A stretch of DNA of 47,573 bases from an uncultured Thermoplasmatales archaeon (GTDB lineage: Archaea; Thermoplasmatota; Thermoplasmata; Thermoplasmatales; GCA-001856825): positions 1 to 47,573 of the forward strand of contig CAYMKC010000002.1 of assembly GCA_964391105.1 (NCBI GenBank). The letters are read 5' to 3'. Shown piece after piece: positions 28,354 to 37,942 of this stretch. Under the pieces are notes generated by a model, which ran no database searches, was not told the origin of the DNA, and worked only from the letters and a program-made list of their open reading frames with translations. The first letter of the stretch is position 1. Each line of letters opens with the position of its first letter. Both the position numbers and the translations under genes were made by a program.

Positions 28354-28893
28354 TTGAAGTTAGGGGTCATGGCAAGGGATTTTAGAGTCTACAATAGACT
28401 GCTAACTCTTCTCAAAGGCATGAATGAACCCTTCATTTCTCTCCGACAATATGACAATTTCACTGACTTCGACGTAGTCTTTACGGACATGGACCTTAAG
28501 GGGAGCAACGTAGTGAAAACGAAGGGGCTCGAGGAATTCAGGTTGAAGCAACTGATAAGGTCAAAGAACTCAGAGAGGATAGTGGTAGGCATAGACCCGG
28601 GTCCTGCACCAGGAATAGCAACGCTCGCGAACAACGTCGTGATCGACAAGAGGGTCATCTACGACGTCAGCCAGATAAGGGACTACGTATCTCGCGTCAG
28701 CAAGGAGTGCAGGTACAGCAGCCTAATAATAAAGGTGGGGAATGGGGACCGGGGCTACAGGAACCAGATAATAAGGAGCCTGAGGGATTTCAGGCTTCAG
28801 ATCGTGGACGAGCGCGGTAGCTCAAGGACAGTAAAAAGAGGAGAAGACTCTGGCTCTGCCATCAACATCGCACTGAGCGACGATATTCTCTGA
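28354..28893 (+). CDS. putative RNase H-fold nuclease of the RuvC/YqgF(RuvX) type with an N-terminal extra domain
   Basis: 'IVVGIDPGPAPGIATL' resembles the first-strand Asp motif, and the C-terminal 'IVDERGSSRTVKRGE..SGSAINIAL' resembles the YqgF 'DERlTT..A....D..AA..IL' pattern. The start is TTG 28354 or ATG 28369. Confidence 0.4.
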   Translation: MKLGVMARDFRVYNRLLTLLKGMNEPFISLRQYDNFTDFDVVFTDMDLKGSNVVKTKGLEEFRLKQLIRSKNSERIVVGIDPGPAPGIATLANNVVIDKRVIYDVSQIRDYVSRVSKECRYSSLIIKVGNGDRGYRNQIIRSLRDFRLQIVDERGSSRTVKRGEDSGSAINIALSDDIL

Positions 28894-29655
28894 TCACTTC
28901 TTCCACTTGGGTCGTCTCTTCCTGGCATAGTAGCTCGCAATGAACATCACAGCAACAATGATCCCAAAGAACGCGAGTATGCCGATGTATATGTAGATAA
29001 GGTAGGGGTTTCCAGCCTGTATCTGAAACGTATAGGAACTACCATTCTGGAACTTTGCAATCGTGTTGTTAACGAGCACGTTCACGGTGTAGACTCCCGG
29101 AGAAAGCGACCCAGAAACCCACTCGTACGAGACGCTCTTTGTGGAGTTTTTGGAGATGTTGATCATCTCGCTTCCGACGTACTTGCCATTTACCTTGAAC
29201 GTGACATTTATCGAGTTGAGTGCAAACTGCGAGGGGTTCTGTATGGTCGCAGTGAGCGTGGTGAACTGTTTCACAGAAACCTTTGAAGTGAGATTGTAGT
29301 AGTACTTTGCATGTTTCGACATGTTGCCTATTACCTGGAACAATAGGTACATGGTGGTCTCGACACTAGGTGCTTTCACGTTAAAGACGGTTGGGCCGCT
29401 CGTTAGATCGGTCTTGTAGACTGGTGAAACGGGGGACGCTCCCGTAAGATTGTATCCAGAGACCAGCATTGTGATGGAGTAATTCGTGAATATCTGCTGC
29501 ACCATTACAGAGTAGTTGAACGAAGAGTTGATCGCAACAGCCGAGGGGCCGGTTACCGTTACGGGCCCCGAAGAGTTGGTGCTGGCACTAGCCGTCATGG
29601 CAAGTGCTGACCCCAGAAGTAGTGCGATCACAACGATGGTTATTAGGGCCCTCAT
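28894..29655 (-). CDS. type-I anchored, sequon-rich surface protein (signal peptide, beta-rich ectodomain, C-terminal TM, basic tail)
   Basis: Signal peptide 'MRALITIVVIALLLGSALAMTASA'. I count ~12 N-X-S/T sequons by hand in 253 aa. The C-terminus is 'IGILAFFGIIVAVMFIASYYARKRRPKWKK'. The ATG overlaps the stop of the giant aglB ORF (ATGA at 29652-29655). Confidence 0.6.
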   Translation of the reverse strand: MRALITIVVIALLLGSALAMTASASTNSSGPVTVTGPSAVAINSSFNYSVMVQQIFTNYSITMLVSGYNLTGASPVSPVYKTDLTSGPTVFNVKAPSVETTMYLLFQVIGNMSKHAKYYYNLTSKVSVKQFTTLTATIQNPSQFALNSINVTFKVNGKYVGSEMINISKNSTKSVSYEWVSGSLSPGVYTVNVLVNNTIAKFQNGSSYTFQIQAGNPYLIYIYIGILAFFGIIVAVMFIASYYARKRRPKWKK

Positions 29656-32600
29656 GTCCTGAACCTCCTTCTGAATATCAGCATCACAACTACCATCGCT
29701 AGTACTATGAATGCCACAAACGCATACATGTAATAATCCTGGGTCAGCGGAGAATATGCCGAAATTGTTCGTCCAGCTCCAGTTCCCTTGCTGACTTTAA
29801 GACTCGGGGTGAAGAGCTTTGCGGTGACGAGTTTGGTGGTGTTCCCGTAGCTGAGCAGTATAGTTACCTCCGTCCCGGCAAGTGGTTTTCCAGCCGTCGA
29901 ATTTATCAGTAGGTACGTTGTGTTGTTGGAATTGGCTCCAAGCTTTTTGGAGAAGGAACTGGAGTTGCTGAATGTGACCGTGACTCCATCTGCCTTGAGC
30001 TGTGCCGAGTTCAGGATCGTCGCGTTGACTTCAGTTTTGACGTTTCCCGAGTTGTATATAGTCATAGGGATTTTCATTACGTCTCCCGATATGCTCCCGG
30101 TGTTCGTGTTCACCTTCGCTGATATATTCTGGACCTGGGCTACGGTGACATTCACCTGAACGTTAGAATAGGTGTCTCCGTAGTAGACTATGATGTAGAC
30201 CGAGGTGTTTCCAGCCGATTCTTGGGCCGGGACCTTAAGTGTCACGTAAGTTTCCCCAGAAGAAAATGGAGCCAGGCTTATTCCAGTCCCGTTGACATAG
30301 AAAGTGGAAGAATTGCCGATCGTGAAGTTCAGGGGAATGTTTGCCTTGCTAGTAATGAGCAGGGGGAATGTGATAGATTGTCCCGTTTTGAGAATTGGGT
30401 TTCCTGCCTCGGCATCGAAGATGACTCTCTCCTCAGAATTTATCTTGAATGCAAGGGTGGCCGAGCTAACACCCGAAACTCTCACAATCTGGTCTATCGA
30501 GTAGTTGTCAAGGTGTCCGTAGTAGGTGTAGGTAGTCAGGCCCTCGAATGTGTAGGAACCGTTGGGCAGGTTTATCAAGCCAGAAGGTGGAAGATAGTAG
30601 TTTGCATTGCTTTTCAGCGCAACCATTCCTGTGTAGGAAGAGTTGTTCAGGAACGATCCGTAATTAAGCGGGTATGCCCTCTGAAGGGTGACGTTGAAGC
30701 TTACGTTCGAAGTCGAAACGTCAAATCCACCGAAGTACGCTAGGTTGCCCGAGGTAACGTATATGGAATAGTTGCCTACTGGTAAGTGGAGGGTCCCAGT
30801 ACTCAGTGTACCAGAAACGTTCTTTGCTCCCTGCATGTAGAAATTCCCTGTCGTAAGTGCCTTTCCGTTGTAGTAGTATCCTATAGTTACGTTAGACAGT
30901 ACCTCTTTCAGAGTTGCGTTCAGAGATACGGTTCTGGATGAAGAGATGTAGATGGATGAGGAAGCGAAGTAGACGTATGAGGAATTGTAGTTCTTGTCGA
31001 TCGTGAAGGTGTAGGTTCCCTTCGGGAGTAGTATGTAATGCCGCCACGTGATCAGTCCCGCTGCGGAGTTTATGGTGACGTTTCCCGAAGGAGATGTGTT
31101 TAGAGTGACGTTGTATGATGTCTGGAAATTGAGCGACACGTTGTAGCTGCTCGTAAGGTTCACCCGTTCAAGCGCTGCCTTGGTCCCGCTGTAGGCGTAA
31201 ACAGTATAGATGCCTATCGGGAGCGTATTGTTGAGAGTGGTGGACACGAGATTCCCATTCTGGAAGATGTATGTGTGTTGAGCGGGGTCTACGTACAATT
31301 TTGCCTTTATGAACAGCGTCACCGAGAATTTCTGGTCAGCACCACCTGTGACAACGTCTATGCTCTTCGAGGAGATTGTGATGTCTGTACCTGGCCTCGA
31401 GAAGGCGATCGAAAAATTCCCAGGGACCATTGATAGGTTGAAGTAGTGGGTTCCTCTGACAACATACTTTTGAGAACCGTTCAAGTATAGGGTTAAAGGC
31501 ACGCTCCCCGAGTAAGAGGCGTCAATGGATACGTTTACAGGCAGCACCTTGAGGTTGATCTGGGCTGATGTTGAGGTGAGTACCGCATATCCAGGTGATA
31601 TGAAACTGATATTGCTGATACTCTGGCCGTCCGTCAGGAAAAGCTGATATGACCCTCCCTTCTTGGAGAAGAAGTCGAAATATGGCTGCCCGTTGAGTTG
31701 CGTAGTTACGAGCCCAACTACGGTAGTTCTGCCGAACTTGGCGGTACCGTTCACTTGGTATCCGTTATAACCGTTCAGTGAGAGGTAAACGTTCTGATTG
31801 TTGACTGTAAAACTTGCGGCTCCAACGTACAGCTTAAAGTTGTAGTGAGAGTAAGTCACTATGCTGTACTGTCCAGCTGGAAGATATGTCGAGAAGTAAC
31901 CCGTTGCATTCCCAAAAAGTTCGACGTATGTGTTCGAACCAGTTATGGCTATGTTGGTGTTGTTCTGGCCAGTCCCGTTGACTCTGTATTGACCAGAGAC
32001 GAGGTAGGATTTCTGGAGGTTGAGGAAGACAGTCATAGGACCGGATATGTTCAGGATGTCCGTCGTCGAGTAATAGTTCCCCTCGTAGAAGATGTCAGAA
32101 TAGACCGTCAGTGCGGAGGCAGGAGCACCGTAGTTTGCGACCCCATTTGAGTCGGACATAATCGTCGTTGTACTGGCAGCTACATATGTTGCATTGTTTA
32201 TGACTATTGGGACGCTTACCCTGTTTCCATCTATCTCTGTTATGAAGGTTATCCTGTAAGAAGTGGTGAAGGCGAGGTTGAGATCCGCAGTGCTGTTGTT
32301 GGTGAGTTGGGTGGTGAAATTGGTCCACCTTCCACCGCTCTGGGCGCTAACGTTGTAGATTCCCGTAGGTAGGTAATATGCCTGGTCTGCAACCGTCAGT
32401 TTGTAGGTCGTGGAGAAATTTCCCCTGCTGAAAGTTATGTTTGCTCCAGAGGAGAGTGTCACTCCAGACTGTAGGCTCGCGTTCATTATACCATAATCCA
32501 GCGGGACGTCCTTTGACAACGTCTTTGAAGAGGCGGTCACTGAAGCGACATTGTTGTACCACTGCCCATAAGCATACACCGAAATCTTGTAGGTGTATGG

Positions 32601-35600
32601 TTGGACGTTGGATATCTGGTAGCTTCCGTTCCTGAGCGTACGCGTTGTGTAGGTAAGGTTGTAAGTGGAATTGTAGTACCTAACGGTTCCATTTACCGTC
32701 TGGTCAGTGCTCGAGTAGGACTTGCTCTTACCGAGGTTCAGGAAAACGACCCCGTTGACCTGGGTAGAATTGACGACCAGGTTGTGCGTGATGTTCCACG
32801 TGGGGCTTCCGTACTGGTTATAGCTAACCCTGTTGGCCTGAGCACTTGATATGGAAATGTTGTAGAAGCTTAGGGTCTTGTTCCCCAGCATGTAGAGTTG
32901 GTCCAAGGTACCTGTTGAATAGGTAACTGTGTCGTTGCCCGCAACCGCGTAGAGTGAATAATATCCGGTGGAATTGGTCAGAACAGACTCGTGAGGAATA
33001 CCGTACTGGTCAGTCAGCGTCACTCTGACACCCTGCACTGGTTCTCCCTTTGTGTTCGTTACCTGACCGCTTATGATCGCTCCCGGGTAGTAGTGGAGAA
33101 ATATGACGTCGCTTGAAAGAACGGATGCAGGTGGGAACAGGTCAACTGTTCCGTAGTGCTTTTGCATGAATGAATATCCCTGGTTCAGGGGGATCTCTTT
33201 CCAGGCATTCGTGTGGTTCTTATAATCGGTGTAAGGGTTCCAGAGCACCGTCTTGTAGGAAAGCTCAAAGTTGGACATACCCCAACCCTGCATTGCGGGA
33301 TATGAGGTGAGGTTTGAGGAGAATCCAGGAATGCCGCTGGAAGAACCAATTGCACTCGGCGGATAACCTATGAATCCTCTGTAGATGGTGCTGTTGTAGA
33401 ATGCCGGCGTATAGGTTATGCTGTAGCTTGCAGCCGTTGAACCGGACGGGAAATTCTGGAGTGCATAGGTGACTCCATTCGTTGAAGTTACGTTTATCGT
33501 GTAGAACTCTGATGGAATTATTTCGCCAGAAGCATTGATGTATGGGAAATCACCGAGATACGATGGTGCATAGAATATCCCTGTATTCGTTCCATTGAAT
33601 GGAAACAATCCATAGTCCACTGATATATAGCTCATCTGTTTGCTCGAAAGCTGTTCGATTGCAGAATAGAGGTTTATGAGTGTGTTCAGTGGATAGGTGT
33701 TGGTCAGGTAGTGCTCCATTGCTATATAGAGCGCATCTCCCCCCTGTATTGTCGATGAGTGATTGCCGTAGTAGTTTGGGTTCGCTTTGATCTGCGCAAT
33801 GATGCTATCCTGGTGCGGGATGCTCAGGGGGGTTTCCTCGAAATAGACAACGCTGCTTGTACCAGTCTGTCCAAGGTACTGGTTGAGTATTCGAAGCAAT
33901 GAGGTATTGTTAATGTCACCAGCTAGCGAATAGTTGTAGATCATCTGAGCGATCATAACCGATAGGATCTCGCTCTCGTTCTGAGCCAGCAGTATCTGGG
34001 CGGCGGGATAGATCCCGTCCTGGAAGTTATCCGCCATTACAGGGTGGTTCCCCTGCTCAAGCGTTTGGAAACCATAATCCCACCAGGAGATGAAAGCAGG
34101 TCTGTTGTTAGGCGATTGATTTGTATCCTGATTCTGGAACCAGGAAAGGGCCCTTCCCCACGGTTGCTGGGGAGTAGCGAGGCTCGCACCAAAAGCTCCC
34201 AGATAATATGGAGCAGAGTAATTGGTGGGTCTCAGGAATGTCGGGGTATCATTGTAGAGCTGGCGGTCGTATCCTGTCTTGTTGTTGTACGGGATGGCAG
34301 AATCTACTGCATAGAAAGTCGTAGGGACGATTAACAGGAAAACGACTATGAGTATTGCCGCATAGTGAGCAAATCTGAATTCTCTCCTGAGTGCATTCTT
34401 TACCGATCTTCCCTTTGACTTATCCACCGCCTCTTTGAATGCTAGGAGTTCAAACGCTCTGACTACGATATAGGCTGTCAATATTGATGCCGCTGTAGCT
34501 CCAAAGTAAAGGAACTTCGAAGCTATCATGCTGATGACTATTATGCCTCCGAAGTATACGAGTGCGATTGTAGTGCTGAACGTAGCAGTCCTGATCCATT
34601 TGTACACCAGATATGCAAGCCCTATGAACGTAGCGAAGAATGTGAATGCACCGAACTCTAGTAGGTCCTCTCCCAGCGGTAGTGCCTGAGCCTCTGCGAT
34701 CGTATCGTAAATCTTGTTCTTGACGAAATAGTGCTGCCCGGAGAGGATTGCATACAGGAATGTGTTGTCAAACTTGGCAAGAAGCAGTACTCCAACGACC
34801 GCAGCAACGACCAACACTCCTATCGATACCAACCAAGGACGCCTCTGCATTACCAGGAAATAGAGCGATACTAGTACTAGAACTCCCCATAGTATCAGGG
34901 GATAGTCGAATCTTATCGGGATAAAGTGAGCTACATAGTACCACGGGAATGCAACCAGGAAACCGAATCCGAAGAACAGGTTGGTGATAAAAATAGAGAG
35001 TGCGCTCTTTTTCTTGAGTGCGTAAATTGCAAGTTGTATCACTGCCGCTCCTACGAGCAACAGGATTAGTGAAATCGCTCCAACCCAGGTGAGCATCGTC
35101 GCTGCGAGAGATACGGCCGCAAGAAGCGCATAAGTAATTGAGATGGGATTGCTCCTTACTGATTGCACTAAGCTAGGCAGGAGTTTCGTCTCGTTGCCAT
35201 CGTACTTGAATGTGTTAACTGCTCTCAGGAAGTAGTATATGAACATCACGCTAAACAATGCTGTATAGATATCGAACAGGCCTATGGTGCCTATACTCTT
35301 CATCAGTGTTAGGGGAGACATGGCCACGAGGACTGCAGCTACGAGCCCTACCTTGTACCCGAACAATTCCTTGCCGAGGTAATAGGTCGGGAAAACTATG
35401 AACGCTCCCCCGATCGCAGTGCTGGCTAGGAACATGGTCATGGTGGACTTGAATACCCCGCCAAGGAACGGCGAGAATGCATACCCTAATAGGACAATCA
35501 GCCAATGGAAGAACGGTGGTCTAGGGTTCTCCAAACCTACAGGAAAGTTCAGGCTTTGATCAAATAACAGTTGATGGTGGGTGGACAGAATAAATTGCAC

Positions 35601-35804
35601 AATTCTCATGTTGTAGTAGGCGTCAGAACCTCCGGAAACGGCATAGCTAGCCTTCACCGCAGGACCGATCACGAAGAACAAACTGAGGAAAAGGGAGAAG
35701 AAGAAGGTTACCCCAAGGATAATCCCAGTCTTCGATTCCAAACTCAGATTGTTCACAGAGTTCGCTAGAGTCTTAATTCTGCTCGTTGCATCCATCAAGT
35801 CCAC
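29652..35804 (-). CDS. aglB: oligosaccharyltransferase AglB (STT3 family) fused to a ~1,100-aa sequon-dense beta-sandwich array and a C-terminal membrane anchor
   Basis: Uninterrupted 2,050-codon ORF, starting at GTG 35804 or ATG 35795. The N-terminal half is multi-TM. 'TIAE' lies at aa 368-371. 'WWDYG' lies at aa 574-578, nt 34085-34071, and was verified codon by codon. A C-terminal TM plus 'RRRFRT' ends the protein. Confidence 0.85.
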   Translation of the reverse strand: MDLMDATSRIKTLANSVNNLSLESKTGIILGVTFFFSLFLSLFFVIGPAVKASYAVSGGSDAYYNMRIVQFILSTHHQLLFDQSLNFPVGLENPRPPFFHWLIVLLGYAFSPFLGGVFKSTMTMFLASTAIGGAFIVFPTYYLGKELFGYKVGLVAAVLVAMSPLTLMKSIGTIGLFDIYTALFSVMFIYYFLRAVNTFKYDGNETKLLPSLVQSVRSNPISITYALLAAVSLAATMLTWVGAISLILLLVGAAVIQLAIYALKKKSALSIFITNLFFGFGFLVAFPWYYVAHFIPIRFDYPLILWGVLVLVSLYFLVMQRRPWLVSIGVLVVAAVVGVLLLAKFDNTFLYAILSGQHYFVKNKIYDTIAEAQALPLGEDLLEFGAFTFFATFIGLAYLVYKWIRTATFSTTIALVYFGGIIVISMIASKFLYFGATAASILTAYIVVRAFELLAFKEAVDKSKGRSVKNALRREFRFAHYAAILIVVFLLIVPTTFYAVDSAIPYNNKTGYDRQLYNDTPTFLRPTNYSAPYYLGAFGASLATPQQPWGRALSWFQNQDTNQSPNNRPAFISWWDYGFQTLEQGNHPVMADNFQDGIYPAAQILLAQNESEILSVMIAQMIYNYSLAGDINNTSLLRILNQYLGQTGTSSVVYFEETPLSIPHQDSIIAQIKANPNYYGNHSSTIQGGDALYIAMEHYLTNTYPLNTLINLYSAIEQLSSKQMSYISVDYGLFPFNGTNTGIFYAPSYLGDFPYINASGEIIPSEFYTINVTSTNGVTYALQNFPSGSTAASYSITYTPAFYNSTIYRGFIGYPPSAIGSSSGIPGFSSNLTSYPAMQGWGMSNFELSYKTVLWNPYTDYKNHTNAWKEIPLNQGYSFMQKHYGTVDLFPPASVLSSDVIFLHYYPGAIISGQVTNTKGEPVQGVRVTLTDQYGIPHESVLTNSTGYYSLYAVAGNDTVTYSTGTLDQLYMLGNKTLSFYNISISSAQANRVSYNQYGSPTWNITHNLVVNSTQVNGVVFLNLGKSKSYSSTDQTVNGTVRYYNSTYNLTYTTRTLRNGSYQISNVQPYTYKISVYAYGQWYNNVASVTASSKTLSKDVPLDYGIMNASLQSGVTLSSGANITFSRGNFSTTYKLTVADQAYYLPTGIYNVSAQSGGRWTNFTTQLTNNSTADLNLAFTTSYRITFITEIDGNRVSVPIVINNATYVAASTTTIMSDSNGVANYGAPASALTVYSDIFYEGNYYSTTDILNISGPMTVFLNLQKSYLVSGQYRVNGTGQNNTNIAITGSNTYVELFGNATGYFSTYLPAGQYSIVTYSHYNFKLYVGAASFTVNNQNVYLSLNGYNGYQVNGTAKFGRTTVVGLVTTQLNGQPYFDFFSKKGGSYQLFLTDGQSISNISFISPGYAVLTSTSAQINLKVLPVNVSIDASYSGSVPLTLYLNGSQKYVVRGTHYFNLSMVPGNFSIAFSRPGTDITISSKSIDVVTGGADQKFSVTLFIKAKLYVDPAQHTYIFQNGNLVSTTLNNTLPIGIYTVYAYSGTKAALERVNLTSSYNVSLNFQTSYNVTLNTSPSGNVTINSAAGLITWRHYILLPKGTYTFTIDKNYNSSYVYFASSSIYISSSRTVSLNATLKEVLSNVTIGYYYNGKALTTGNFYMQGAKNVSGTLSTGTLHLPVGNYSIYVTSGNLAYFGGFDVSTSNVSFNVTLQRAYPLNYGSFLNNSSYTGMVALKSNANYYLPPSGLINLPNGSYTFEGLTTYTYYGHLDNYSIDQIVRVSGVSSATLAFKINSEERVIFDAEAGNPILKTGQSITFPLLITSKANIPLNFTIGNSSTFYVNGTGISLAPFSSGETYVTLKVPAQESAGNTSVYIIVYYGDTYSNVQVNVTVAQVQNISAKVNTNTGSISGDVMKIPMTIYNSGNVKTEVNATILNSAQLKADGVTVTFSNSSSFSKKLGANSNNTTYLLINSTAGKPLAGTEVTILLSYGNTTKLVTAKLFTPSLKVSKGTGAGRTISAYSPLTQDYYMYAFVAFIVLAMVVVMLIFRRRFRT

Positions 35805-36082: not shown

Positions 36083-36610
36083 GTGTTCTGTCAGCAATGT
36101 GGTGCTGAAAACAGGGAAAGTGCAAGGTTCTGTGCCCATTGTGGAGCTCCTCTAGTGTCTAGCCCTGAACCAAGCAAGAGCTTCGCCCAAAAAGTACCCC
36201 AGCAGACATCTTATCAGAGTCAGCAGGGGATGCCATACAACAAGACCGTGCAATCAGAGCCGGCTATAACTTCTAGGCACTGGACCGTTACGGTGGCATT
36301 AGTGATTTGGATAATAGCGGTTCTGTCAAACCTCTATACGACAGCTATCGAGTTTGCATTCCATTACGATCCGGGAATTGGAGTTGGTCTAATACTAACG
36401 CTCCTGAGCTTCTTCACTGCCTACAACATGTACGACGCGGATAGAGATGGTCTTTACACGGGAATAACCGCAATAATAATCGCCTTCGTGTGGGACGTTT
36501 TCATTTCCAATTACATCTCCGTGGTGATAGTGATCGTGATAGCTATCTTCACAATACTTGCTGCTTCTCATCTTGTAAAGGGTGGAATCAAGAAACCAGC
36601 GACTCAGTAA
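36083..36610 (+). CDS. membrane protein with N-terminal cytoplasmic zinc ribbon
   Basis: 'FCQQCGAENRESARFCAHCGAPL' (CxxC-x10-CxxC), then a Q/S/P-rich linker and ~4 TM helices. The start is GTG. Confidence 0.6.
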   Translation: MFCQQCGAENRESARFCAHCGAPLVSSPEPSKSFAQKVPQQTSYQSQQGMPYNKTVQSEPAITSRHWTVTVALVIWIIAVLSNLYTTAIEFAFHYDPGIGVGLILTLLSFFTAYNMYDADRDGLYTGITAIIIAFVWDVFISNYISVVIVIVIAIFTILAASHLVKGGIKKPATQ

Positions 36611-36622
36611 GGACGAGATGAA

Positions 36623-37942
36623 ATGTCATTCCGGAAGAAAAGACAAGGTAACATTTTGCCCTCTACTGGAAACGCTACAAAGGATATGTGGGGGAGGGAC
36701 CCCTCCCAATTCATGAGAGAGATTGCGCCAGAATTCGTTGTTGGGGAGGGCAACCAAAAGGCACCTCCAGAGAAATACATAATGACAATGTGCCATGTGT
36801 GCCACTTACAGTTATTTCCGGAAAGGGAAGTTCCTGGGTTTTTCCCTGCTGCGACTCATTCTGAGAACACTCAATACGTTACTGGGGGAGGATTGTCACT
36901 CTGTGAGAGGCATTTCAAACTTGTGAATGAACTCACAAAGAGACAGATAACAGTTGACAAATGGCCAAGTCAACTTATCAGGGGCATAGTGACGTATTCG
37001 AGGGAGCAACTTCGATTCGCAAGAGACTCAATCGCCTCAGCTCAGCAGGGATTGTCGACAGTGCAGACAGTAAAAACCGTAATAACTCCTGCTCCCATCA
37101 TAGGCAATGCTTATTCTCCAGTGACACCCGGTGTGCAAACGGGAGCGTTCACCAATTATTTCTTCGCATTTCCAATGCAAAGACAGGTGGTCGACCAAAA
37201 TGCGGTAAACACAGCAGGAAACCTACAGAGCTCAATCCAGCTACAACAGCAGTACGCAGCTCACTTTAGTGAACAGCTCTCTAAGTATAACGAACTTCTT
37301 GAAAGAACCAGAAGAGAGAATCCTCCGAAGTTTGTCACCGATATCAGATGTGGCCAATCGGAGATGCCATTGGGAACAAAGACTTGCATATGGTGTGGTA
37401 AGAGTCAGGGTTATTCTGGAGACGTTGTTCCAGTCAACGTACTGGTGGAGGATGTAGATCCTATGGGTGTGGTCCCTATTTATGCCGATAGGACGGGAGC
37501 CAGTATCCTGAGCACGGACGTCGAAGATACGGGTGATGATGTTGATGATGAGTTTGACGAAAGTGAAGAGGAGAGTGAAGCGAACATGAGTGAAAACAAT
37601 GACGATGCCTTCTGCACTCAGTGCGGCATGAAAGTGTCAGATCGAAAATCAAAATTCTGTGATAATTGCGGAGCTGCCATTGAATTAAAAACTAAACCCA
37701 CACCTGCCAGCAATCAAGGTGGTAGGTCAAAATCTGTGGACACATCTCCTAGCGGTGCCCTGACGGGGTCCAAGAAGGAAGAAGAACCAGGAGATCGCAG
37801 TGCCTCAACGCTTTCAGTTTCGAATATACCTCCTACCCCAAAGGAGCCAATTAAATACTGCCCCGAGTGTGGAAAGAAACTGCCTTTTGAAATAGTCAAG
37901 TTTTGTCCGTACTGCGGGACGAAGATTCCACCGATGAGTTAA
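36623..37942 (+). CDS. soluble multi-zinc-ribbon protein (four Cys/His clusters, acidic tract), function unknown
   Basis: The four clusters are 'CHVCH..x..CERH', 'CGQS..CIWCG', 'FCTQCGMKVSDRKSKFCDNCG' and 'YCPECGKKLPFEIVKFCPYCG'. There is a Q-rich middle and the acidic run 'DTGDDVDDEFDESEEESE'. It starts 12 nt after the preceding gene. Confidence 0.6.
   Translation: MSFRKKRQGNILPSTGNATKDMWGRDPSQFMREIAPEFVVGEGNQKAPPEKYIMTMCHVCHLQLFPEREVPGFFPAATHSENTQYVTGGGLSLCERHFKLVNELTKRQITVDKWPSQLIRGIVTYSREQLRFARDSIASAQQGLSTVQTVKTVITPAPIIGNAYSPVTPGVQTGAFTNYFFAFPMQRQVVDQNAVNTAGNLQSSIQLQQQYAAHFSEQLSKYNELLERTRRENPPKFVTDIRCGQSEMPLGTKTCIWCGKSQGYSGDVVPVNVLVEDVDPMGVVPIYADRTGASILSTDVEDTGDDVDDEFDESEEESEANMSENNDDAFCTQCGMKVSDRKSKFCDNCGAAIELKTKPTPASNQGGRSKSVDTSPSGALTGSKKEEEPGDRSASTLSVSNIPPTPKEPIKYCPECGKKLPFEIVKFCPYCGTKIPPMS

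Follow-up and report, generated by a model that had tools for sequence, protein, structure and literature searches.

A long, two-anchor oligosaccharyltransferase AglB and its coupled partner gene in Thermoplasmatota

Archaeal and bacterial oligosaccharyltransferases (OSTs) have been described as single-subunit enzymes (PMC7226087). The 47,573-nucleotide (nt) stretch of DNA analyzed here (the window; positions 1 to 47,573 of contig CAYMKC010000002.1 from an uncultured Thermoplasmatales archaeon) encodes on its minus strand an OST of the AglB type, whose single open reading frame (ORF) continues for ~1,100 residues beyond the catalytic part. To our knowledge, all AglBs that have been solved or studied biochemically stop after one or two peripheral units. 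Is this gene an unusual fusion of a glycosylating enzyme to a surface array crowded with glycosylation sites, as the first-pass annotation of the window read it, or is it the ordinary AglB of its lineage? Using homology searches, profile comparisons, and structure models, we find that it is almost certainly the lineage-standard OST AglB of an I-plasma-like Thermoplasmatales archaeon. Our best explanation for the locus as a whole, which we consider probable at a clearly lower level of confidence, is that this lineage-standard AglB has a built-in, glycan-coated ectodomain scaffold and a partner protein, and works as a multi-anchor OST assembly.

A search with the whole protein returned 42 sequence clusters, all of 2,022-2,535 amino acids (aa) and covered end to end, with the WWDYG motif at ~570-660 and, in each of the 42, a C-terminal transmembrane (TM) helix followed by a basic tail. 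Scanning one genome per GTDB species matched at least 577 loci. The best 79 of these all belong to Thermoplasmatota; the closest is from an uncultured Thermoplasmatales metagenome-assembled genome (MAG; 90% identity), and the same 79 also cover I-plasma (67%), DHVE2/Aciduliprofundum, Thermoplasma, Cuniculiplasma, Ferroplasma, Acidiplasma, and Methanomassiliicoccales. Essentially all untruncated ORFs are 2,029-2,269 aa long and have the C-terminal TM helix. Cultured carriers include Thermoplasma volcanium GSS1 (TVG1271204, 2,076 aa), Oxyplasma meridianum (2,113 aa), Cuniculiplasma, and Caldiplasma. When the catalytic part alone was used as the query in HMMER, 250 representatives were found at E<=1e-30; 80 of those newly returned reach 1,900 aa or more (their range is 2,010-3,185 aa), and the C-terminal TM helix is found in 78. 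No genuinely short AglB was found among the ~150 nearest relatives, where the shorter matches look like contig-end fragments. With more than 570 loci and ~250 clusters across Thermoplasmatota sharing an architecture of 2,000-3,200 aa, the proposal of an unusual fusion is not borne out. By sequence comparison, the long two-anchor AglB is ancient and the norm of the phylum Thermoplasmatota, with the window gene as an ordinary core orthologue.

The AglBs of this phylum routinely have the extension, which is uncharacterized. Orthologues carry varied database names (GT39, STT3 domain-containing, AglB, 'carboxypeptidase regulatory-like domain-containing protein'). Full-text literature searches, which did not extend to the subscription surveys of AglB across Archaea, turned up no account of the long Thermoplasmatota AglB or of its partner. 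The papers that they returned note AglB homologues in the plasmas of acid mine drainage and in Cuniculiplasma and are silent on length, array, second anchor, and partner. The orthologues of T. volcanium, O. meridianum, and I-plasma (L004) share the whole architecture and the anchor at 30%-90% identity, with nothing essential that differs, and the partner gene is also present at the related genome loci that we traced.

Size variants were observed at both ends of the range. The Acidiplasma AglB is shortened to ~1,425-1,442 aa and keeps the first extension domain, the C-terminal TM helix, and the partner gene (A. aeolicum VT, locus L081, 4623-8897; P0160 and P0168). A subgroup of distant relatives of 3,155-3,185 aa (P0278, P0280, P0284, and P0287) has an extra N-terminal region of ~365 residues with hydrophobic segments before the AglB domain and a long array.

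Could the length be an artifact of assembly or sequencing, in which a frameshift or chimeric join fused AglB to a neighboring surface-protein gene? We found nothing in favor of this idea, which derives from the length of the protein relative to characterized AglBs alone. The ORF runs without interruption over all 2,050 codons, one unbroken frame as first annotated, and the same unbroken architecture recurs in dozens of independent assemblies (NCBI, JGI, ENA, Logan), including the closed genomes of T. volcanium GSS1 and O. meridianum. This conservation shows neither the frameshift nor the chimeric join for which the first-pass annotation had advised a check of the reads, and we reject both; the chance of an artifact is negligible. 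The frame opens at a GTG. The N terminus of the closest orthologue reads MDATS..., which corresponds to an ATG three codons inside the window ORF (MDATSRIK...). Because orthologues begin at this ATG, the true start is probably the ATG at 35795, giving a protein of 2,047 aa, and the GTG taken by the ORF finder (35795-35804 stretch) is probably wrong.

Residues 1-905 should be a catalytically complete STT3/AglB, predicted from motifs and models to transfer a lipid-linked glycan to the Asn of N-X-S/T at the outer face of the membrane. By Kyte-Doolittle hydropathy, aa 1-500 contain 12-13 TM segments, in keeping with the ~13 first annotated. The three motifs quoted in that annotation are all confirmed: GGSDAYYNMR, which contains the first-loop D61; TIAE at aa 368-371; and WWDYG at aa 574-578, encoded by TGGTGGGATTATGGT at 34085-34071 of the minus strand. 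In 32-39 homologues, with identity as low as 21-25%, D61, T368, E371, and WWDYG never vary (39 sequences for D61). The first-loop catalytic Asp is D47 in Archaeoglobus fulgidus AglB and in yeast Stt3, and D56 in PglB (PMC7226087). A profile of the family matches the A. fulgidus AglB-L structure 3waj over aa 14-501, the membrane domain (E 2.5e-26), as well as 5gmy and 7e9s. The alignment to 3waj sets GGSD61AYY on GGND47PWY and TIAE on TIAE, and WWDYG aligns to the WWDYG of 3vgp, 3vu0, and 3waj.

The AlphaFold2 (AF2) model of aa 1-1100 has a mean predicted local distance difference test score (pLDDT) of 85.6 and a predicted template modeling score (pTM) of 0.79. Its sole weak stretch is external loop 5 (EL5), a loop that is disordered in substrate-free PglB (PMC7226087). 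The top Foldseek match of this model is A. fulgidus AglB-L (7e9s_A; E 4e-25, target TM-score 0.70), followed by human STT3A/B, yeast Stt3, and PglB. Together with the invariant motifs, this fold match bears out the earlier reading of a complete long-type AglB. A. fulgidus AglB-L (3WAJ/3WAK/5GMY/7E9S) and Pyrococcus AglB-L share with the window protein the 13-TM GT-C fold and WWDYG; D47 in external loop 1 and E360 of the EL5 TIAE of the A. fulgidus enzyme equal D61 and E371 here. They also have an extracellular globular domain with beta-rich add-ons (CC/IS/P1/P2; PMC3703281). Among NCBIfam models, TIGR04154 (archaeosortase A system-associated STT3) matches aa 29-619 with E 1e-53, at 182.9 bits against a cut-off of 450, so the window protein is related to that subfamily and is not a member of it.

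Two catalytic-site features may set the window AglB apart from the characterized AglB-L enzymes. The 'GFNDHHIW' of 3waj aligns to L176-F-D178 (~35271-35279), in a loop where the alignment may be shifted. D178 is at least 90% conserved in one of our alignments (A1), and the first Asp is seen in the consensus of the profile alone, and so in distant homologues. For the second acidic motif, the close clade has L-F-D where STT3-type enzymes have D-X-D/E/H (D-X-H in A. fulgidus AglB). In addition, inspection of aa 580-660 (region at ~33840-34070, aa 579-655) gave no match to the DK (DXXKXXX[M/I]), variant DK, or MI motif. The DK and MI consensus patterns lie on a kinked helix, and variant motifs are sometimes unidentifiable without a structure (PMC3703281). 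The L-F-D motif and the lack of a fitting DK or MI may reflect a different variant of the Ser/Thr pocket in Thermoplasmatota AglB.

The extension is a series of domains. We split the family alignment into 13 segments (D1-D13) at predicted domain borders and compared all profiles against all with hhalign. D1-D11 are mutually homologous, mostly with E 1e-5 to 1e-14; the weaker pairs (2e-4 to 5e-2) are a few that involve D1, D6, or D8. D12 matches D13 at 1e-11, and the two match D1-D11 only at >1e-3. The carboxypeptidase-regulatory-like segment and the CARDB-like strands, TM helix, and basic tail that had been read from the letters are all recovered. PF13620 matches D1 at aa 911-963 with 34.4 bits (cut-off 32.3), and D2 scanned alone matches CarboxypepD_reg with E 1e-4; Pfam recognizes only these two domains in the window protein. 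The six LPxGxY turns lie at aa 1145, 1308, 1528, 1593, 1674, and 1746, with LRNGSY at 1057. The six modules were real, but a count of at least six was too low, as the profiles resolve 10-11 mutually homologous repeats. In orthologues with fewer N-glycosylation sequons, Pfam recognizes as many as 7 CarboxypepD_reg stretches (E 1e-52), and the end of the extension matches CARDB or an Ig (immunoglobulin)-like domain. CARDB and FixG_C match at the place equivalent to D12-D13 in orthologues P0042 and P0039, and the family profile over the D12-D13 region matches a sialidase Ig linker.

Modeled by AF2, aa 906-2050 are all-beta (pLDDT 85.3, pTM 0.52) and end in a 20-residue disordered linker and one long helix (model residues 1115-1142). 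D2-D11 have a pLDDT of ~85-90 and the linker <50; D1 is high in both models. Hydropathy peaks at aa 2026-2044, directly before RRRFRT. A Foldseek search with the whole extension gave generic multi-beta-sandwich proteins only (alpha-2-macroglobulin/complement, BaTIE, pilins), all with TM-scores <=0.13, and is uninformative as a guide to overall shape.

The 13 segments are colinear across 21-90% identity, with invariant Tyr and Gly residues deep inside the array. On these profile and model data, the extension is an array of 10-11 ancient, individually conserved prealbumin-like domains and two CARDB-like domains. Within the close clade, sequences share on average 0.70-0.71 pairwise identity over the catalytic domains (0.70 over the extracellular globular domain), 0.71 over D1, 0.42-0.46 over D2-D13, 0.61 over the C-terminal TM helix, and 0.75 over the basic tail. 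D1 is therefore level with the catalytic domains, and the C-terminal TM helix and tail are conserved beyond the ectodomains that adjoin them (0.40-0.46). In the 'DQYGIPH' region of D1, T929, D932, and P937 are invariant in two alignments (A1 and A4), and H938 is invariant in A1 and at least 90% conserved in A4.

The sharp fall in conservation after D1 (0.71 to 0.42), together with the size of aa 1-~990, which fits that of characterized long AglBs (A. fulgidus AglB-L, 864-875 aa), is what a polyprotein might look like. Here, cleavage after the catalytic domain or D1 would yield two products, an AglB of ordinary length and a separate surface glycoprotein held by the C-terminal anchor. However, the D1/D2 junction has no conserved linker or low-confidence segment (pLDDT 80-90 in both AF2 models), Pfam and NCBIfam scans found no protease motif or domain, and among ~150 representatives the two parts are separate genes in no lineage, the short matches again looking like contig-end fragments. 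We consider cleavage of this kind very unlikely. An archaeosortase-type signal (PGF-CTERM-like) was also considered for the C terminus and rejected: no NCBIfam family besides TIGR04154 matched at E<=0.01, and the C terminus, ...YSPLTQDYYMYAFVAFIVLAMVVVMLIFRRRFRT, has no PGF before the TM helix.

Where could such an array come from? A. fulgidus AglB-L ends at 864-875 aa, and characterized long AglBs have one or two peripheral units and no second anchor; compared with them, the window AglB is longer by ~12 beta-sandwich domains and also has a C-terminal TM helix and a coupled gene for a partner protein. Among long AglBs, the P1 and P2 units have been described as beta-rich additions whose role is unknown (PMC3703281). 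A weak alignment links the C-terminal beta unit of A. fulgidus AglB-L (the P1 region) to a single module of the array, suggesting that the array may be a multiplied form of the beta-rich peripheral unit of long AglBs.

The first-pass annotation saw in the extension an ideal substrate joined to its enzyme. Counting sequons as N-X(not P)-S/T, we found 74 in the protein, 68 of them after WWDYG (in agreement with the 65-70 counted by hand); 57 lie in aa 906-2050, a density of 5.0 per 100 aa. Residue shuffles of the extension give 24.7 +/- 4.1 sequons, 0 of 5,000 shuffles reach 57 (z=7.8), and the reversed motif [ST]xN occurs only 22 times; the enrichment is thus well beyond chance, and is selected and not explained by the richness of the extension in Asn, Ser, and Thr. 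Such a density could mean that the extension exists to display dense N-glycans added by its own catalytic domain, as a self-glycosylated glycocalyx or S-layer (surface-layer)-like element on wall-less cells. Indeed, at 38 of the 57 positions the sequon is shared by half or more of the close-clade sequences, and density is 4-7 per 100 aa throughout Thermoplasmatales-like lineages. The few other signal-peptide ORFs sampled (in the flanks of 46 related loci) have densities that the extension and the partner equal or exceed. Moreover, Cuniculiplasma isolates are reported to have no S-layer, and the wall-less members of Thermoplasmatales outnumber those that bear one (PMC5155288). The highest density seen, ~7.5-8 per 100 aa, is that of the shortened Acidiplasma extension.

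Comparison with the rest of the phylum argues against such a purpose. Density falls to 2.5-3.9 per 100 aa in DHVE2 and to 0.7-1.8 in Methanomassiliicoccales-like lineages, and distant orthologues at 0.4-1.8 keep the architecture, the length, the anchor, and the partner. Some of them stand at the expectation from composition (P0040, 5 sequons with 5.1 expected; P0037, 8 with 7.1 expected), and hardly any sequon position is common to the close and distant clades. Within the window, density is 0-1.6 per 100 aa in cytoplasmic ORFs, 3.3 in the AglB ectodomain, 5.0 in the extension, and 4.7 in the partner, which is the only other exported protein. Across 63 loci, the densities of extension and partner are correlated (Spearman 0.69, uncorrected for phylogeny). 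Because the partner is equally dense and the two co-vary, the sequon load reads as a lineage-level property of exported proteins, with the architecture conserved independently of it. Finally, a coat that spends one enzyme molecule on each element would be poorly built. We therefore consider the glycan-coat explanation unlikely, and the notion of an enzyme joined to its ideal substrate does not hold. The comparison with the density of other secreted proteins is a weak one: the extension is at or above the few signal-peptide ORFs sampled and level with the partner. Judging from its sequons, the extension is very probably N-glycosylated, as a consequence of exposure and not as the reason for the fusion.

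The partner is a 253-aa protein whose ATG overlaps the AglB TGA as ATGA (29652-29655). Downstream of AglB, 63 loci have a gene of 239-293 aa whose product begins with a signal or TM segment and has a TM helix near its C terminus; 48 of these loci have the same 4-nt overlap, and this arrangement is kept from 90% down to 26% identity; the coupling reported in the first-pass annotation is well founded. CARDB (PF07705) matches the window protein at 22.7 bits, exactly the gathering threshold of 22.7, and is found in 27 of 28 partner orthologues (best E 5e-14). The partner profile also matches CARDB-type PDB entries (3idu, 2kl6, and 2l0d), and its domains are weakly similar to D12-D13 (E ~1e-4). The cytoplasmic tail of the partner ends in PKWKK in most Thermoplasmatales and DHVE2, and does not in Methanomassiliicoccales-like lineages.

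The closest multi-domain parallel to the array comes from eukaryotes. NOMO, a subunit of the BOS complex (9C7V chain B), has ~12 prealbumin-like domains, one TM helix, and a short cytosolic tail (PMC11186639, PMC8327139), the same plan as here with its ~12-13 prealbumin-like domains, although the likeness is one of architecture only. NOMO is a ~24-27 nm string of beads whose length sets the width of endoplasmic reticulum sheets (PMC8327139). By analogy, the array could be a spacer or ruler, a semi-rigid rod or hairpin that sets a distance from the membrane to an S-layer or other outer layer, or from cell to cell, with AglB as its membrane foot; such a rod could dimerize head-to-tail, as proposed for NOMO. 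The near-constant length of 2,030-2,130 aa across Thermoplasmatales and DHVE2 fits this idea. The family profile matches human NOMO2 (9c7v_B; E 6e-21, 58 bits over ~500 columns and ~six consecutive domains), the only multi-domain array in the PDB that it matches, and the Foldseek list of the extension includes BaTIE (6fwv), reported as the fold nearest to NOMO.

The match to NOMO nevertheless amounts to ~10 bits per domain, and a single-sequence search with the window protein finds no NOMO. Of the NOMO-specific Pfam models, NOMO_5th and NOMO1-like_9th match P0034 out of order, and only the former reaches its 27-bit cut-off there; NOMO1-like_9th in P0034 and NOMO_5th in P0030 are below cut-off. 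NOMO is also absent from the Foldseek top 50 for the extension model. On these grounds, the resemblance is probably generic domain homology, and we reject orthology. The settings differ as well, in that NOMO is a free-standing type-I protein that acts with Nicalin and TMEM147, whereas the array makes up the C-terminal half of AglB; Nicalin- and TMEM147-like genes were not noted in the neighborhood listings, in which no search was aimed at them. As for a spacer, both ends of the array lie in the same membrane, which would halve its reach, and the gene is present in relatives of Cuniculiplasma, whose isolates have no S-layer (PMC5155288). A spacer role has, in our judgment, only a small chance of being correct.

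How might the long AglB work instead? In the assembly that we favor, D1 belongs with the enzyme and can be compared to P1, the beta-rich peripheral unit of A. fulgidus AglB-L. The chain then runs outside the cell as a fixed series of ~13 beta-sandwich domains, with D2-D11 as prealbumin-like beads and D12-D13 as CARDB-like domains, and re-enters the same membrane through the C-terminal helix with its positive-inside tail. With both ends fixed in the membrane, the array must loop, and it would form an arch or hairpin reaching up to ~20-25 nm above the enzyme, a height estimated at ~4 nm per domain. The partner, a type-I membrane protein of ~255 aa with two Ig-like domains, is made in step with AglB by means of the start/stop overlap. 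Array, C-terminal helix, and partner would serve as the non-catalytic modules of a multi-anchor OST assembly, forming a glycan-coated scaffold or canopy that would hold the exposed catalytic domain in position at the membrane surface, stabilizing and shielding it. A number of these archaea reportedly have no S-layer. This mechanism of accessory modules, which we advance tentatively and as somewhat short of an even chance, follows a logic similar to that of eukaryotic OST, where accessory subunits are beta-rich and cross the membrane once. Ost1 and Wbp1 have beta-rich lumenal domains and one TM helix and flank STT3 (PMC7226087). The partner and the D12-D13 plus TM helix end of AglB share the plan of Ost1/ribophorin I and Wbp1/OST48, each of which crosses the membrane once and has one or two beta-rich domains in the lumen.

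Several observations weigh against this assembly. Gene coupling speaks for co-expression and not for binding, and contact of the C-terminal helix or the partner with the AglB membrane domain is not directly seen. The array may be an arch, a compact form, or an extended rod. Repeat number varies, from the ~1,425-1,442 aa of Acidiplasma to 2,500-3,185 aa in some relatives, so a spacer or coat fits as well as a scaffold. Since the few other signal-peptide ORFs sampled lie at or below the sequon density of the extension, there is also room for a specific role in glycan display. Lastly, searches of the PDB with the partner and family profiles matched no accessory subunit of eukaryotic OST. No similarity to Ost1, Wbp1, or Swp1 emerged from these profile searches, and we reject the partner or the array as a homologue of such subunits.

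A stronger form of the multi-anchor assembly would hold that the OST of Thermoplasmatota is not single-subunit at all, the bead array, TM helix, and CARDB partner being obligatory and packed around AglB. We think this unlikely; if true, it would give an archaeal precedent, by convergence or possibly distant ancestry, for the accessory subunits of eukaryotic OST and for NOMO-type translocon rods.

A whole phylum keeps three extras on a well-known enzyme, namely a ~1,100-residue extracellular array of 13 domains, a second membrane anchor, and a translationally coupled type-I partner, and maintains them from acidophilic, wall-less Thermoplasmatales to Methanomassiliicoccales. This maintenance implies a conserved function, and the architecture is an uncharacterized variant of a well-known enzyme family. 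It bears on how an exposed OST is stabilized and organized at the cell surface and on the origin of accessory OST and translocon components. It also raises the question of whether an archaeal OST can comprise more than one subunit, one for which cultivable species (Thermoplasma, Cuniculiplasma, Oxyplasma) carry the gene.

Table 1. Features of the AglB locus, with positions in the window
Feature	Coordinates	Strand	Basis or content
Full AglB ORF	29652..35804	(-)	2,050 codons from GTG; stop TGA 29652-29654
N-terminal GT-C membrane domain, aa 1-~520, ~13 TM helices	34245..35804	(-)	hydropathy, HMM alignment, AF2, Foldseek
First-loop D61	35622-35624	(-)	within GT-C domain
TIAE in flexible EL5 loop	34692-34703	(-)	within GT-C domain
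Extracellular catalytic globular domain, aa ~521-905 (CC-type core and extra units)	33090..34244	(-)	includes WWDYG 34071-34085
D1, aa 906-997, first prealbumin-like (CarboxypepD_reg) domain	32814..33089	(-)	Pfam PF13620
D2-D11, aa 998-1791, nine to ten prealbumin-like beta-sandwich domains, LPxGxY modules	30432..32813	(-)	AF2, hhalign
D12-D13, aa 1792-1998, two membrane-proximal Ig/CARDB-like domains	29811..30431	(-)	hhalign, orthologue Pfam matches
Linker aa 1999-2019, TM helix aa ~2020-2047, basic tail RRRFRT	29655..29810	(-)	AF2, hydropathy
Coupled partner gene, 253 aa	28894..29655	(-)	signal peptide, N-terminal beta domain, CARDB, TM helix, ...RRPKWKK tail
Zinc-ribbon pair divergent from AglB	36083-36610 and 36623-37942	(+)	between DsbH-like gene and AglB

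The surroundings of the gene agree with its status as a core orthologue. The locus had been called accessory-looking, a description that does not survive the comparison: its GC content is 0.47-0.49 (window mean 0.484), and the AglB flanks (an ABC permease, a DsbH-like gene, the 179-aa gene, and an 81-aa gene) are syntenic in relatives. We therefore reject an accessory or foreign origin. What does vary is the zinc-ribbon pair (Table 1), which tblastn finds in 1 of 82 related loci. That locus, L013, is a short contig with an AglB fragment 79% identical to the window protein; it comes from the same MAG (CAYMEF01) as L006, whose AglB is 90% identical and which lacks the pair. Given this distribution, the pair is, on sequence evidence, an insertion that varies among strains and lies between the DsbH-like gene and AglB, and we reject it as a component of the AglB system. 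The two AglB variants of MAG CAYMEF01 themselves point to strain heterogeneity or a mixed bin.

Convergent on the partner lies a 179-aa gene (28354-28893, plus strand), which is found in the same position at 43 related loci, down to ~33% identity (for example in Acidiplasma). It has a weak DUF460 match only and no match in NCBIfam, and may be a third conserved neighbor of the AglB module. Rfam and tRNA scans of the window gave no matches. In a syntenic relative (L001, 1-258), the A subunit of the V-type ATPase contains an intein (Pfam Intein_splicing); the window ends before the corresponding gene.

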